Source: Prochlorococcus sp. AG-355-B18
GTDB taxonomy: Bacteria > Cyanobacteriota > Cyanobacteriia > PCC-6307 > Cyanobiaceae
Length of the DNA: 64,000 nt
Reading direction: 5' to 3'
Assembly: GCA_003280965.1 (NCBI GenBank)
Contig: QCDI01000001.1
Location: forward strand, 192,001-256,000
Shown here: one piece after another, positions 53,273-58,318 of the stretch
Layout of the letters: each line of letters starts with the position of its first letter
How positions within the stretch are numbered: position 1 is the stretch's first letter
Translations under genes and position numbers: made by a program
Notes under the pieces: model-generated
The model's input: the letters and a program-made list of their open reading frames with translations, nothing else
Told to the model about the DNA's origin: nothing
The model's database searches: none

Positions 53273-53342
53273 TTTTAGGTTATTATAAATATTGAATAGG
53301 TAATTATGTGATTAATTAAAGATAACTGATTTATTTTAAGCA

Positions 53343-53489
53343 TTAAGATTTTTTGAATATTGTTTCAAGCATCCTTTTAAGAGAAATTGTTAATATCCTC
53401 AAGAAGACGAAAAACAGTCCTAACCAACCCAGAATAACAGCTATTGATAATAAGCTTGAACCTAGATCACGCTGTAGCAAATTCTGCAT
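53343..53489 (-). CDS. 48-aa membrane peptide (not in ORF track)
   Basis: Manual translation MQNLLQRDLGSSLLSIAVILGWLGLFFVFLRILTISLKRMLETIFKKS. Confidence 0.55.
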   Translation of the reverse strand: MQNLLQRDLGSSLLSIAVILGWLGLFFVFLRILTISLKRMLETIFKKS

Positions 53490-53815
53490 GTATTCATAAA
53501 TTAATGGATGTCACTCTACCTTAAAGAGTTATTGATTCAAACAAGTAAAAGTTCAACATTCTGATATTTTTCCAGTTCCTTGTTATGTGGCTATTTAATA
53601 GTTATGTTTAATAAGCTAATATTTATTTATAACCATAAATAAAAATTTTGGAATTATCTTTGAATTCATATATTGGAATTTTCTTTATAATTATTGGTCT
53701 AATAGTGAGAGTTGATTTTAAATTTTCTATGCAAAAGGATTTGTAATAAGTTTTTTAATAAATTATATTTCATCATTTCGCTAATATCTTTGTTAATTCC
53801 TGAAAGGAGAATATT

Positions 53816-53840
53816 AAAAAAAAACAGCCTTACGGCTGCT
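53816..53840 (-). terminator. orphan terminator, probably the displaced native tRNA-fMet terminator
   Basis: Minus strand GCAGCC-GTAA-GGCTGT plus T-run, just after a CCGCCACCA copy of the tRNA 3' end. Confidence 0.75.
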
Positions 53841-53844
53841 TCTA

Positions 53845-54360
53845 AATGGTGGCGGTTCTAATGAACCTGATGGAATCTTACAAACTACAGGTATAGGTTC
53901 AGTAGCTATTGGAACAAATGGTGGAGCTATTACTTTGGACAAGGTTTTAGACCTAAAACAAACTGTAGCTGTAGATAATGCAGACGTAGCTTCCTGTGCT
54001 TTTGTTACTAATACCGCAGTAGAAAATGCTTTATCAAAACTAAAAGATGGTAACTCTGCTTATCACTTATCACCTTATGCAGGTGCAGTTGGTAGCCAAC
54101 AGATTGCTAACAGATCATTCATGGTTTCCAATAACGTGCCTTCCAACTTAACTAAGGGTTCTAGTTCTGGTGTTTGTTCAGCAATGATTTATGGAAACTT
54201 CTCTGACCTATTAGTGGGACTTTTCGGAGAAAGTGAAATACTAGTGGATCCGTACACCCTTTCACAGACAGGTGTTACATCAGTAAGAATCATTCAAGCA
54301 TTAGACGTTAAGGTGCGTCATGCTGAATCATTTGGTGCTATTCAAGACATAACAACATAA
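53845..54360 (+). pseudogene. HK97-fold major capsid protein, C-terminal half only
   Basis: Frame reads NGGGSNEPDGIL...LKDGN...VSNNVPSNL..MIYGNFSDLLVG...VDPY...VRHAESF; N-terminal half absent. Confidence 0.85.
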
Positions 54361-54366
54361 GTATTA

Positions 54367-54465
54367 GAGGGTAATGGATTTCGGTGTATAGATTGGGTCG
54401 ATCCTATACATCTGGAACATAGTTGTTTCTTTACATGGCTGTTGTAGGTCTATTGCCCTCGACCC
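54367..54465 (+). ncRNA. candidate structured RNA (three-stem junction plus pseudoknot)
   Basis: Stems 54367-81/54446-60, 54383-91/54404-12, 54419-26/54435-42 paired by hand; loop GGGTC complementary to the GACCC tail. Confidence 0.55.
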
Positions 54466-54477
54466 TATAATTATGTT

Positions 54478-54510
54478 GATTGACAGTCGATCTAAAATAA
54501 GGGGCAATTA
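54478..54510 (+). repeat. repeat A copy 1 (upstream of cargo gene 1)
   Basis: GATTGACAGTCGATCTAAAATAAGGGGCAATTA. Confidence 0.92.
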
Positions 54511-54525
54511 AATCCTTTCTTTATA

Positions 54526-54819
54526 ATGATTAAAAAAAATCTTATTACTTTTATTAGTTTAATTGTCATGAGTGGATCATTAACTAGTCCAGCTAAATCT
54601 AATTTTAGAAAATCTGGTTTTGGAGAAGGGACAGCAGCTTTCGCTTGTTTTTTACTTTGGGAAGGTTACTCAAAATATGAGGTTGAAAGTTTAATTTCTA
54701 GATTTGCTAGGCGAATTGAAAAAAGTAATTTTTCAGAAGAAGCAATGAATCAAATGGCACTTGGTTATAGAAATCAAATCAAAATTACTAATGATTGTGA
54801 TTTAAGAATGAGGTATTAG
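54526..54819 (+). CDS. cargo gene 1: small secreted two-Cys protein
   Basis: Signal peptide ending PAKS; ACFLLWEG...NDC. Confidence 0.7.
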   Translation: MIKKNLITFISLIVMSGSLTSPAKSNFRKSGFGEGTAAFACFLLWEGYSKYEVESLISRFARRIEKSNFSEEAMNQMALGYRNQIKITNDCDLRMRY

Positions 54820-54830
54820 CTCAAAGTTTA

Positions 54831-54871
54831 AACATAAGTTTAGGCCTGATGAAACGCCTAGTACTTGCACC
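54831..54871 (+). repeat. repeat B copy 1 (downstream of cargo gene 1)
   Basis: AACATAAGTTTAGGCCTGATGAAACGCCTAGTACTTGCACC; 35/41 identical to 55291-55331. Confidence 0.92.
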
Positions 54872-54885
54872 GCTATATTAAATAC

Positions 54886-54921
54886 GATTGACAGTCGTCG
54901 ATCTACAATAAGGGGCAATTA
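54886..54921 (+). repeat. repeat A copy 2 (upstream of cargo gene 2)
   Basis: GATTGACAGTCGTCGATCTACAATAAGGGGCAATTA; differs from copy 1 by a 3-nt insertion and one substitution. Confidence 0.92.
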
Positions 54922-54931
54922 GTTTCTTTTA

Positions 54932-55309
54932 ATGACACACCAGCAAAAAAGCGTTTATATACTTTTTTTTATAATTTTTTTGATAGTTTTAATCGGTTAT
55001 TTATTGCAACCTGAAAGTGAGTATAAGGAGGCGGCTACAGTTGGTTTGATAATAAGTTCTTTTTTTATAATTGGTCTTCTTTCTAGAGGTGCAAGAGAAC
55101 AATTAGAAGAAAGAGGTGGAAAATCACGAGCAGATTCTCGAAATGAAAAATTATATGCCAATCCAGATTTAAATACTCGTAAATGGAATATTCATCAATC
55201 ACGTTTAAATAAATTTGGTAGATCACAATATAAAGGAACAATGTTTTATGTTGGCCCAAAAGGTGGGGTTTATTACATTACTTACAGAGGAACAAAAGTT
55301 TATTGCTGA
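54932..55309 (+). CDS. cargo gene 2: 2-TM protein with C-terminal PBCV basic-adaptor-like motif
   Basis: Two TM helices; YVGPKGGVYYITYRGTKVY resembles the GP(R/K)GGxYY..G.KxY motif. Confidence 0.7.
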   Translation: MTHQQKSVYILFFIIFLIVLIGYLLQPESEYKEAATVGLIISSFFIIGLLSRGAREQLEERGGKSRADSRNEKLYANPDLNTRKWNIHQSRLNKFGRSQYKGTMFYVGPKGGVYYITYRGTKVYC

Positions 55310-55331
55310 TGAAACGCTTACTACTTGCACC
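55291..55331 (+). repeat. repeat B copy 2 (overlaps the stop of cargo gene 2)
   Basis: AACAAAAGTTTATTGCTGATGAAACGCTTACTACTTGCACC. Confidence 0.92.
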
Positions 55332-55442
55332 ACTTCGTGGGTCCCTTTGACCTATATCTACGTGGGACGTCTGAAAGCTCTGAAATTTTCTAGCGTCAGC
55401 AATATATGAACTTAGACAGCGTTTAAGTCGATTTAGAGTAAA

Positions 55443-55694
55443 TTACTGTGATTTAGCGAGTTCTATGTATTTTTTAAGGTCATAATCGTTAATCGGAATC
55501 CAGTTGTTAGAAGTCAGATTATTTTGAATATGTTTGGCTAAAGTTACACCTTTAATAGCACCCATAAAAAGGTATTTTTGGTCATTTATGCGTCTTATAT
55601 AAGGGTCAAGTATTCCTTTATCTCTAAGTTGATAAATACTAGCTCTGGATTTAAAACCTAGACATTTATAAGCCTCAGTAAAAGTACAAAGCAT
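55443..55694 (-). CDS. HTH excisionase/AlpA-like recombination directionality factor
   Basis: TFTEAYKCLGFKSRASIYQLRDKGIL MerR/Xis-type HTH; directly downstream of the integrase. Confidence 0.7.
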   Translation of the reverse strand: MLCTFTEAYKCLGFKSRASIYQLRDKGILDPYIRRINDQKYLFMGAIKGVTLAKHIQNNLTSNNWIPINDYDLKKYIELAKSQ

Positions 55695-55723
55695 GGTTAT
55701 ATATTTACTTAACTTTATTTTGA

Positions 55724-57079
55724 CTAATTATTTTCTGGTATGGAAGTTGCAAACATTATCTGCTTTTTCTTTTCTTCACTACTAATCCAATATTGATAGT
55801 GCTTTTTATGTGTTGCTACATCATGACCCATTGATTGTGCAGCTTCTTCTATAGATATATGAGAACATCTAGGATCAGTAGCTAGTCGTATTGCATAAGT
55901 ATGTCTTAGGTCATAAGGGGTTATTGGTTGTTTATTTGCAGAATTATCAATTAATCCTTTTTTATTAGGAATTGCAGCAAGTAATGGAGGCATTGCATTT
56001 GATAATCTTCTACCAATCCATTCCCCTAAATAATCGTTATTAATACATACCCCAAGATCGTTTAAATCATTGGGTGAAACATCTTTAGTTTTATCTATAG
56101 AACTTTTGATTATCATTGTTGCCTTACTTCTTAGACTTTTTTGCATACGTTCAAAATTCTCTAATAGATTATATTTTTTGATCCAATCAGGATATAGAGG
56201 AAAGGCATAATGTTCATTTTTACTCTTTGTTCTCCATGCACCAGGAATATATATCCACTTGTCAGCATCTTGTATATCTTTAGTTTTTTTAACTTTGCTT
56301 ATATGGAATACTTCATGGTTTCTTAGTCCATAACAAAGTTGAATAGCTAAACACCATTTTTCTAACTCGAATTGTTTATCTAATGAATCAAAATATTTTT
56401 CTGCTTCTTCTTTAGTTGGTATTCCTCTGATATTTGCAAATTCTTGGTCGGGTCTATATTTTTTTAGTTTTCTATTTTCTCTATTATGTTGTTCTCTTAA
56501 AAGTAATAAATTTGATTTAGTTATAAAATTAGGTTCATTTCCATTAATAGTTGATAGAGCTAATCTAACTTGCTCAAGAGAATCTAATCTATTTTTAAAA
56601 GGTCTTGATTCTATAGATTTTTCAAATACCCATTTTTTTATAGAGTTCCAATTTAAAGAAGTATTTGAGTTAATTAGATTATTTAAATCTGCTTTAGTAT
56701 TTTTTGCACTAGATCGTTTTTGCGTTTTATCTAAATAATTTACTGTAATTTCTTTTATATCTGACCAAGTATATAAAGGTGTTTCTTTTTCTATCTCTAA
56801 ATTTGGATTATCCAGAAATTGAAGTTGATCGAGTATAGGCATATCAATATTCCAATCATTATTCCCAACGTGTTCTATTAGTCTTGCAACTGCTAATACC
56901 TGATCTATATTTTCATATGCTTTTACTGGCTTTAATGAATATTGTTTATCAGTTTGTTTATCTCTAATACTTAAAAAAGGAGACTTTTTATACCTCCGAA
57001 CCATATATCTAGCTTCAATATCAACTAAAAAATCGATAACATCTTCCCAAGTCCTAGTTTTTCTGCGTGATCTTGTCAT
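55724..57079 (-). CDS. tyrosine recombinase/integrase
   Basis: YGLRNHE (R), TKSK (K), PYDLRHTYA (H/YxxR), MGHD..HKKHY (H, Y nucleophile); adjacent to tRNA. Confidence 0.92.
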   Translation of the reverse strand: MTRSRRKTRTWEDVIDFLVDIEARYMVRRYKKSPFLSIRDKQTDKQYSLKPVKAYENIDQVLAVARLIEHVGNNDWNIDMPILDQLQFLDNPNLEIEKETPLYTWSDIKEITVNYLDKTQKRSSAKNTKADLNNLINSNTSLNWNSIKKWVFEKSIESRPFKNRLDSLEQVRLALSTINGNEPNFITKSNLLLLREQHNRENRKLKKYRPDQEFANIRGIPTKEEAEKYFDSLDKQFELEKWCLAIQLCYGLRNHEVFHISKVKKTKDIQDADKWIYIPGAWRTKSKNEHYAFPLYPDWIKKYNLLENFERMQKSLRSKATMIIKSSIDKTKDVSPNDLNDLGVCINNDYLGEWIGRRLSNAMPPLLAAIPNKKGLIDNSANKQPITPYDLRHTYAIRLATDPRCSHISIEEAAQSMGHDVATHKKHYQYWISSEEKKKQIMFATSIPENN

Positions 57080-57200
57080 TAAAAACTCTACTTAAAGTCT
57101 ACTTGTAAAGGTCTAATTGAGTATATTTCAGTCCAATTAAATCATAGACAGACCAGTAAGTAAAGTTATAGCTGATACCTAAAAACCCTGTATTTCCAAT

Positions 57201-57223
57201 AAAAAAGCCCCCATAAGGAGGCT
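57201..57223 (-). terminator. element-supplied terminator downstream of tRNA
   Basis: Minus strand AGCCTCC-TTAT-GGGGGCT-TTTTT. Confidence 0.75.
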
Positions 57224-57230
57224 ATATCAT

Positions 57231-57307
<77 letters not shown>

Positions 57308-57352
57308 GCATATATATAGCATACATCTGAAAGGGTAGTTTTTTCTATTTCT

Positions 57353-58318
57353 TTAGGATTCTTGGAATTTTAATTGCCCTTTAACTTCGATTCTCACGCC
57401 TTCTGAAAAATTAAACACTTTTTCTTCAATGTCTTGAATTCTTAGGTCAGATATCCACTCTAATTGTTTTAATAGGTGAAGACTAACAGCATGTTTAGCT
57501 CTTTTTGAGCCGTCTTCTACTTTTAAAGCCAATCCAATCCCTTCATTTACTTTACATAGGCACTGTATTCCTTCTGCACCGCCTTTACCTATAACTTGTC
57601 CATGAGAAGCCTTAATTATTTCTGTATCAAATTTATTATTGTCACTTAACATTATTGGGTTAGTTGTCATGGCTCTACTTATTTGTTCTAATTCAGCATT
57701 GTCTGAACTACTTAAGAGTGAATATAATTTAGACATTTCTATTAGTTTTAAAAAAAGAGTTGGGGCTCCACAATCATCGCGTTCTGCATTTATTTCAGAT
57801 ATTGGGATCTCGAGTAATTCAGAAATAATTCTAAATATTTCAATTTGAAGTGGATGATCTCCCTTCAAGTAACTATCTAATGGCCAATTCATTTTTTTGC
57901 ATGTCGCTAAGAAAGCAGCATGTTTTCCTGAACAATTATGTTCTAAGGGACTTGTCATTGTTTTAGGACATTTCAGACTACTAATATCGATATCGTATTC
58001 CCATAAAATTTTGAAGGCTTCCCTTGAGTGAAGTTTTGATCCACTATGAGATCCGCAAGCTAATGCAATTGATTTTGAATCATTATTGATTTTTGATGCG
58101 GCTCCACTGCTAACAAAAGGGATTGCTTGAAAAGGTTTTAATGCTGACCTTATAAAACTTTTATATTCTGGATTTCCAGCGCACATTAAAACCCTACCTT
58201 TTTTGTCACTAATAACAGCATGAATTTTATGAATTGACTCAATATTTGTTCCTCTCATTAAGGTTGCTTGTAAAGGAGGATTATTCGATGTGTAAAGGTT
58301 TTTAAAGTTTGAACTCAT
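57353..58318 (-). CDS. L-asparaginase II (Rhizobium etli type)
   Basis: RSALKPFQ, CGSHSG, HNCSGKH, DDCGAP, KGGAEG. Confidence 0.9.
   Translation of the reverse strand: MSSNFKNLYTSNNPPLQATLMRGTNIESIHKIHAVISDKKGRVLMCAGNPEYKSFIRSALKPFQAIPFVSSGAASKINNDSKSIALACGSHSGSKLHSREAFKILWEYDIDISSLKCPKTMTSPLEHNCSGKHAAFLATCKKMNWPLDSYLKGDHPLQIEIFRIISELLEIPISEINAERDDCGAPTLFLKLIEMSKLYSLLSSSDNAELEQISRAMTTNPIMLSDNNKFDTEIIKASHGQVIGKGGAEGIQCLCKVNEGIGLALKVEDGSKRAKHAVSLHLLKQLEWISDLRIQDIEEKVFNFSEGVRIEVKGQLKFQES

Follow-up and report, generated by a model that had tools for sequence, protein, structure and literature searches.

Two short motifs at which upstream and downstream sequence separate in the variable islands of Prochlorococcus

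Two unrelated short motifs, here called A and B, occur in the variable islands of a genus group that we infer to be high-light-type Prochlorococcus, since Prochlorococcus accounts for 19 of the 20 named records that contain the B-A junction. Comparison of genomes shows that upstream and downstream sequence separate at both motifs. The genes that they delimit probably enter, leave and replace one another through crossovers that join like motifs via short homology, without a dedicated recombinase. Both motifs were met in the window, by which we mean the whole 64,000-nucleotide stretch analyzed (C1:192001-256000 of a 1.58-Mb genome of 31% GC that is 99% complete). The features concerned are the following.

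53825..53838, minus strand: host hairpin with T-run (terminator-like, from sequence), past the tRNA-Met 3' end on the chromosomal side
53843..53855, no strand: left junction, 13 bp that are identical in the tRNA-Met 3' end (attR) and in codons within the capsid gene
53848..54360, plus strand: remnant of an HK97-type major capsid gene, comprising its C-terminal 170 codons (PF05065, E 1.3e-22; phrog_617, E 3.4e-28)
54361..54477, plus strand: conserved non-coding stretch 3' of the capsid gene, common to five satellite copies by alignment and lying outside the repeats
54478..54528, plus strand: A1, with core 54479-54494, -10-like box 54493-54498, weak hairpin at about 54499-54518, T-rich run and ATG
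54526..54819, plus strand: gene 1, 97 aa, with a predicted signal peptide and a small helical domain; no family
54849..54885, plus strand: B1, a 10-codon MKRLLL-type stub with the spacer to A2 (recurrent B-A junction)
54886..54934, plus strand: A2, with a 3-nt core duplication absent from most other copies
54932..55309, plus strand: gene 2, 125 aa, with two hydrophobic segments and, at its C-terminus, a domain frequent in the genus; no family
55309..55350, plus strand: B2, an MKRLLL-type gene start overlapping the gene 2 stop, broken off at about 55335
55339..55442, no strand: conserved non-coding stretch next to the likely excisionase gene, bounding the cargo slot on the right
55443..55694, minus strand: likely excisionase, a helix-turn-helix protein of 83 aa (HTH_17 match at E 0.019, which misses the cut-off), kept beside the integrase in related elements
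55724..57079, minus strand: tyrosine integrase, 451 aa (phrog_1, E 1e-8; R..H-x-x-R..H..Y type motifs)
57231..57307, minus strand: tRNA-Met(CAT), the integration site (tRNA and Rfam searches)

The two motifs and their anatomy

The original prediction had described two repeats around a pair of dissimilar coding sequences, and all of its figures were confirmed on recomputation. B1 (54831-54871) and B2 (55291-55331) are identical at 35 of 41 positions, A1 (54478-54510) and A2 (54886-54921) at 32 of 33 once the 3-nt duplication in A2 is set aside, B1 and A2 lie 14 nt apart, and TTGACA stands 7 nt and 10 nt from TA(A/C)AAT in the two A copies. In 100 dinucleotide-block shuffles of 54360-55440, the maximum was 28/41 for a 41-nt repeat (versus 35 observed) and 19/23 for a 23-nt repeat (versus 22). 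Paralogy of genes 1 and 2 is ruled out (best tblastx E 0.47; best blastn match 22 nt, E 0.013); the arrangement is, as predicted, no simple tandem duplication. The similarity at A does extend as far as the start codon, over about 46 nt. The family-wide part of B starts only at its ATG (54849 and 55309) and is 21/23 identical between B1 and B2; the 18 nt 5' of that ATG match at 14 of 18 positions between B1 and B2, but are without conservation among B sites generally. B1 starts 29 nt past the gene 1 stop, and the B2 ATG overlaps the TGA of gene 2.

When searched across genomes, the motifs proved not to be restricted to this locus. At 18-20 bits or more, the source genome holds 22 A sites (at least 20 bits) and 22 B sites, versus 0 in a shuffled genome; 40 of the 42 strong sites fall in clusters spanning 37 kb. 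Each of 20 genus genomes (the source and 19/19 others) contains 4-18 A copies, and 283/285 genus genomes match 54360-55440, the B-A junction accounting for many of the top matches listed. Neighboring A/B sites are co-stranded in 276 of 283 pairs. Among other genera, the A pattern was met in 2/231 genomes, as single matches. A complete A module also precedes an AT-rich gene of 389 aa in another genus, at a locus with 53% GC (L182 1502-2717, genome G415), and this module and gene are likely a cassette transferred out of Prochlorococcus.

By alignment, A is a gene-front module of about 46 nt, composed of a fixed 16-bp core, a TA-nnn-T -10-like box, a hairpin, a T-run and the ATG. Among 205 non-redundant sites, the conserved stretch extends from -1 to the ATG. 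The 16-bp core is an imperfect palindrome; the box at +13..+18 has its T, A and T at 1.00 and a variable middle, and on its 3' side follow a G-rich arm, a loop, a C-rich arm and the T-run. The ATG lies 39-55 nt past the core start in 164/302 sites, with a peak at 42-44 (122/302). Two covarying types of hairpin are seen, pair 5 being C-G in 61 and G-C in 59 of 174 tails, and the mean fold is -5.9 versus -1.9 kcal/mol for shuffled sequence; both hairpins in the window are weak (-3.0 and -3.8 kcal/mol).

This anatomy suggests that A is likely a terminator-plus-promoter. The box would be a sigma70-type -10 with its start site within the hairpin, in which case the hairpin would terminate only read-through transcripts. 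The expectation that each A copy carries its own expression signals is likely right for transcription, whereas the TTGACA named as its -35 is unusable, lying 7 nt ahead of the box; no conserved hexamer occupies the -35 position of A. Likewise, the AGGGG tract read as ribosome-binding is unlikely to be one, because it lies 20-25 nt before the ATG and forms the 5' arm of the covarying hairpin. A T-run, not a Shine-Dalgarno sequence, stands ahead of the ATG at A sites. Two further arrangements were observed. In L095 (16540-16595), two A copies stand head to head, fused through the hairpin into one long inverted repeat; at L085 6578 and seven related sites, the 6-7 nt before the A core differ in all eight copies, although the upstream gene is the same.

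By its alignment, B is made up of the first codons of an MKRLLL signal-peptide-like gene family, often left as a stub. It had been taken for the closing element of a cassette; it is instead the 5' end of the next gene. Among 288 B sites, 72 start intact genes, 212 are stubs and 4 run off the end. Gene families that start with B number 42, and those that start at most 55 nt after A number 88. In 150 sites, at which 89 families end, the B ATG lies within -4..+3 nt of the upstream stop. Codon 3 is CGC in 50 of the 77 distinct genes that were selected through their protein motif, versus 2.1% of Arg codons genome-wide; the retention of a rare codon across unrelated mature domains indicates that B is held at the DNA level.

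A B stub is followed by A at 38 or 39 nt in 109 of 112 junctions, a sample that is enriched, since 105 loci were picked by or ranked on the B-A junction. In loci not picked for it, 64/87 B sites are stubs, and a B stub precedes only 15/142 A sites. The A-gene-B unit therefore does not stand: A recombines with A, and B with B. The hammerhead-like look of the B letters was also considered; it is accounted for by the stop/start overlap, and Rfam gave only tRNA.

Flank uncoupling and crossover mapping

Linkage was analyzed in 146 loci (1.11 Mb) and the source genome by clustering the 70-nt flanks on either side of each joint. These 146 were kept out of 180 after L001, L032 and L056 (source genome) and loci contained in larger ones had been dropped; loci after L180 lie outside the linkage tests. 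Exact duplicate flank pairs were removed before counting, a type seen at least twice was scored as uncoupled if it had at least two different partners, and gene starts within 1.5 kb served as the control. Upstream types with at least two downstream partners amounted to 47/51 for A, 24/25 for B and 9/56 for the control (Fisher 2e-16 for A and 4e-12 for B, P values that are overstated because kin are not independent). The corresponding downstream types were 44/47 for A and 21/24 for B, where the control already reached 37/71. Junction-unselected loci gave 23/25 (upstream) and 25/26 (downstream) for A, and 11/12 and 7/9 for B. Four-gamete sets were found three times for A, once for B and 0 times for the control.

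The positions within each motif that follow one flank or the other show, by association across the aligned sites, that the crossover zones map to the 16-17-bp cores of A and B. Positions -22..-2 of A track the upstream flank (0.69-0.90 versus a background of 0.25-0.46); positions from +16 do not, and most of them track the downstream gene, with a linkage that is incomplete (0.41-0.93) and, at +17 and +23, no better than background. In B, the switch between flank associations falls within the first 17-18 nt.

The same boundaries are seen at the locus in the window. Contigs with foreign sequence join the window precisely at 54478/54479. The gene 1 unit (54479-54931, A1-B1-A2) recurs at 84-92% in G129, G133 and G271 with different upstream neighbors; it begins at the first base of A1 and ends before the gene 2 ATG, and in G129 and G133 it precedes a 329-aa gene. 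The proposal that these are exchangeable gene units was borne out, as homology breaks at A/B between genomes and the flanks uncouple there.

A noisy insertion-polymorphism test with 96 insertions found A/B at both ends in 6, at one end in 13 and at neither in 77, against a background for A/B of about 3-7% per end; A/B joints thus account for only a minority of island changes. No excised circles or array-specific junctions were found in Logan contigs and assembled runs, contigs being an unreliable witness of circles. B-to-A joints in contigs that seemed to go back on the array were considered as evidence of circles and are explained by junctions at other loci.

The satellite remnant and its cargo slot

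The element in the window is what remains of a capsid-type satellite at tRNA-Met, truncated within the capsid gene: only the capsid C-terminus is left, whereas the intact relatives (L075, L077, L078 and L079) have a 536-aa capsid protein and a primase/helicase. Relatives of its integrase adjoin tRNA-Met; the family occurs in 18/285 genomes, and no relatives were found in viral contigs. Homology to the intact satellites begins at 53843, at the 13-bp identity of tRNA-Met and capsid gene, which indicates that the left half (replication module and capsid N-terminus) was deleted at this match, via the integrase or microhomology. The 13-mer is present in L093 on the attR side and in all four intact relatives on the capsid side, and the host hairpin stands in the same arrangement ahead of the partial tRNA copy in L093. 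The 13-mer at 53843-53855 has the look of a pseudo-att site built into capsid codons, and each of the four intact relatives examined has it. Two other arrangements were noted: L079 (688-13965) holds two capsid-type satellites in tandem in one island, and L080 (1638-1647) has a relative of the window integrase that lacks about 1.17 kb from its middle.

The cargo slot lies between the post-capsid non-coding stretch and the helix-turn-helix gene, and opens with an A-like motif in intact relatives. On its right side, homology to L077, L078, L079, L081 and L082 picks up again at 55339-55362. It contains a 68-aa helix-turn-helix, excisionase-like gene in L077, L078 and one L079 copy (L079b), a 52-aa ORF in L075 and nothing in the other L079 copy (L079a); elements that share the helix-turn-helix side (L076, L081 and L082) hold other A/B genes. 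The satellites' own A variant, which follows the capsid gene in L077, L078 and L079, is without a TA-nnn-T box at the usual place and keeps the core start and hairpin; it is perhaps an older or repressed form. The non-coding stretch 54361..54477 has long-range complementarity, and remnants of it head A in capsid-less islands too (L083 and L099). It has no Rfam match, and an Rfam search of 53300-57400 returned only tRNA.

The cargo is largely without family. Gene 1 has no Pfam or PHROG match, occurs in 3/157 genomes and has 77 homologues; its structure model (pLDDT 59) had no Foldseek match at E<=0.001. Gene 2 has 103 homologues, the best other full match being 48%, and no Pfam match, none being convincing among the members of its alignment either. 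Its C-terminal 50 aa form an unnamed domain that stands behind varied membrane anchors in 227/285 genomes. Among 104 representative A- or B-headed proteins, 84 are without a Pfam match at 1e-5; the remainder have DUFs, TPR, PDZ, DnaJ, SHOCT, TM2 and similar small membrane or secreted domains.

Sequencing runs add to this picture. Run X1 contains pieces of the window element with 0-1 differences, and a metagenome contig from it equals 54930-55335 with 1 difference before it leaves the window sequence, in frame and stop-free over the 30 letters shown. As this contig runs on in frame past 55335, B2 in the window appears to be the stump of a lost third gene. The relative in X3 breaks off at 55320, within the B core, and RNA run X15 gave only short pieces.

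Mechanism, known systems and meaning

Under short-homology exchange, which we consider the probable mechanism, crossover at A would place any gene behind a working promoter: the hairpin and T-run of A would end read-through, and the TA-nnn-T box would start a new transcript about 18 nt before the ATG. Crossover at B would furnish a signal peptide, itself coupled to the upstream stop, with a new mature domain, and a B stub would be the leftover once an A-headed unit displaces a B-headed gene. Loss of recJ, xseA, ExoI and mutL would let 16-45-bp matches recombine, and satellites and tycheposons would be mere carriers of units between cells. In the window, a capsid-type satellite would have lost its left half at the pseudo-att site within capsid codons, and two island units with a portion of a third would have entered the slot behind the capsid gene.

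The A and B cores have no common consensus, and a search for in-register A-B chimeras found none; unrelated cores that show the same behavior without any in-register crossing argue for homology rather than the site of one enzyme. Searches for recJ, xseA, PF08411 (ExoI) and mutL gave 0/5 genomes each, with positive control searches. In the accessible part of a study of E. coli, the lack of single-strand exonucleases is described as stimulating RecA-independent short-homology recombination (PMC3333860), and the absence of these genes is circumstantial support for such exchange here. Between the two shuffling agents first proposed, short-homology recombination is the better supported; the neighboring integrase is unlikely, since its family is found in 18/285 genomes, the repeats in nearly all, and no IntI is present.

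An alternative that takes the palindromic A core for the site of a dedicated recombinase is unlikely, though it survives best among the rivals. The enzyme would be a genus-wide host tyrosine recombinase, or tycheposon integrases at a secondary site; exchange at B would be a side process, and A-headed genes would be true site-specific cassettes like pdif modules or integron cassettes. Crossovers do fall in a nearly invariant 16-bp palindrome, A starts -4..+10 nt past the stop of 9/40 integrase-like genes listed (from four groups, the window integrase not being among the nine), two A copies meet head to head through the hairpin in L095, and the source genome has further tyrosine recombinases, one of them among housekeeping-type genes. 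A short palindromic crossover zone, with A next to integrase-gene stops, would suit a site-specific enzyme. However, B acts alike with an unrelated core and without A-B chimeras, A is tied to no single integrase family, and the homology model also predicts that crossovers pile up in the longest perfect match. Tyrosine-recombinase cores have a 6-8-bp spacer, unlike the A palindrome with its 1-nt center. Integrase-like genes of the four groups stand before an array-starting A core at C1:99270-101626 and C2:1070-4752 of the source genome, and in L052, L084, L086, L105, L114 and L133.

It is quite improbable that phage recombinases (UvsX/UvsY of T4-like cyanophages, or single-strand annealing proteins) swap the genes during infection, with phage DNA as the donor, in the way that PeSLs are exchanged within phage genomes. 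The window element is a phage satellite, and A modules stand before genes on three viral contigs (L238/L239 7-1102, L240 542-562 and L237 39-59), two of which carry T4-like genes: UvsX, DnaB-like helicase and MazG; PhoH. Yet the B-A junction had no match in 50,697 phage records, a lytic infection kills the host, and A lies near the ends of the viral contigs, which may be chimeric; A on these contigs is either true phage cargo or chimeric assembly. The B pattern was found in 14 stretches of viral contigs, one of which is a Prochlorococcus-type island with A, the rest being taken for look-alikes with similar N-termini and 40-50% GC, without A.

Equally slight is the chance that A is a mere shared promoter or operator and B a mere shared signal peptide, the genes having arrived by duplication or illegitimate joining, with selection keeping correct fusions and no raised recombination. 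Selection would indeed retain the expression and export roles of A and B, and the 77 of 96 island insertions that end outside A/B fit such a view. Uncoupling, however, far exceeds the control and is accompanied by four-gamete sets, rare codons are conserved in B, its core is kept in 212 non-functional stubs, and breakpoints fall within cores, not at gene ends. Finally, that A-gene-B cassettes are moved by the neighboring tyrosine integrase as an integron analogue, as first proposed, is scarcely credible: the enzyme looks intact, lies 400 nt away and has a relative in L076 that likewise adjoins A/B genes, but its restricted occurrence at tRNA-Met, the absence of IntI, the identity of B as a gene start and the scarcity of B stubs before unbiased A sites all stand against it.

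Among known systems, the PeSLs of T4-type phages come closest. In the accessible parts of the two reports, PeSLs are intergenic, pairing a promoter with a stem-loop over about 100 nt from the upstream stop to the next ATG, and stand ahead of small orphan genes in hyperplastic regions; genes are inserted, deleted and replaced through inter-copy crossover with no dedicated recombinase identified, and mini-circles and promoter and terminator activity were demonstrated (PMC2839356; PMC4122927). As far as those parts go, A is similar in running from stop to ATG with a -10-like box and a covarying hairpin before small orphan genes, in lying in variable regions at gene insertions, deletions and replacements, and in the stem-loop right behind the -10 box, an order found in one PeSL subclass. 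By the same comparison, A differs in its place (a cellular chromosome and satellites rather than a lytic T4-type phage genome), in its length of about 46 nt, in being without the sigma70 -35 at 17 nt and the Shine-Dalgarno sequence that PeSLs have, in its fixed 16-bp palindromic core and in the company of a second, coding joint, B. The A/B joints are PeSL-like, but depart from true PeSLs in -35 spacing, Shine-Dalgarno sequence and host.

The system is not an integron. It shares with integrons co-oriented, small single genes, often behind an integrase gene and reassorted between genomes. However, the IntI-family model TIGR02249 had 0 matches in the 99%-complete source genome, and no attC-type sites (55-141-bp imperfect inverted repeats with R/L boxes) were found by anatomy, B being a coding start and A a 46-nt leader, or by Rfam. 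A/B arrays are without the long attC-type hairpin, give each cassette its own promoter-like module, have two unrelated joints and persist without any one integrase. The proposal that the arrays would be analogous to integron attC arrays and PeSL modules without being recognizable as such fails for PeSLs, which they recognizably resemble. Borrelia erp upstream homology boxes, by their description, are similar in placing a shared promoter, leader and signal-peptide front before dissimilar exported proteins, but form one long contiguous module on prophage plasmids, whereas A/B are two separable 16-45-bp joints in chromosomal islands.

The window element resembles, as far as the accessible text of the tycheposon preprint describes them, PICI-like tycheposons in its tyrosine integrase and excisionase at tRNA-Met(cat), its att copy and its capsid gene, and its intact relatives do so in their primase/helicase. 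It differs in being cut down to the capsid C-terminus without a replication module. The window remnant and L084 carry A/B-bounded genes, whereas that text has no extra cargo ever seen on PICI-like elements (bioRxiv 10.1101/2020.12.28.424599). The main text of the preprint has no passage on such repeats ("repeat" occurs twice, "promoter" 0 times), and the accessible part of PMC9618062 has nothing on them. A literature search found no description of A/B motifs; its coverage mostly excluded subscription journals, so absence from print is not shown.

An identity of A with PRE1 is possible, if rather doubtful. PRE1, reportedly described by Coleman et al. in 2006, is said to be about 48 nt long, to occur in about 9-13 copies (>70% identity) per genome, nearly all of them in islands, and also in a phage, and to be closely associated with hli genes. 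A 48-mer over A has 14-16 clustered copies in the source genome, which fits that length and copy number; a 48-mer from the hli 3' end, with 8 copies, fits too. Against the tie to hli, A lies within 400 nt upstream of 1/58 hli-like genes, and 1/22 A sites in the source genome lies within 2.5 kb of one. We know of no promoter, crossover or B component described for PRE1. If A is PRE1, the element is known, and the anatomy, the crossover mapping and the B joint remain additions.

Taken as a whole, the motifs may constitute a two-joint, integrase-independent cassette system in high-light Prochlorococcus, undescribed in print, with a promoter-terminator joint for expression and a signal-peptide joint for export. 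The system would be common to islands, tycheposons, satellites and perhaps also cyanophages, and would account for a large part of the turnover among small orphan and secreted genes; we put this reading forward tentatively. In its boldest form, a specific protein would bind the palindromic A core and direct exchange. The accessible text of the tycheposon preprint describes the gain and loss of single genes, not the replacement of islands, and attributes most island material to imprecise excision (bioRxiv 10.1101/2020.12.28.424599). Two defined crossover zones of 16-17 bp would offer a sequence-level handle on such single-gene changes in Prochlorococcus islands. To this the window adds the satellite cargo slot, the deletion at a capsid pseudo-att site and the apparently intact third gene in X1. 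The A/B joints would connect the cargo slot of phage satellites with the island gene pool, and would explain why so many of the representative cargo proteins are small and without family, and come with expression or export signals already in place. The PeSL principle would be carried over from phages to the most abundant photosynthetic cell.
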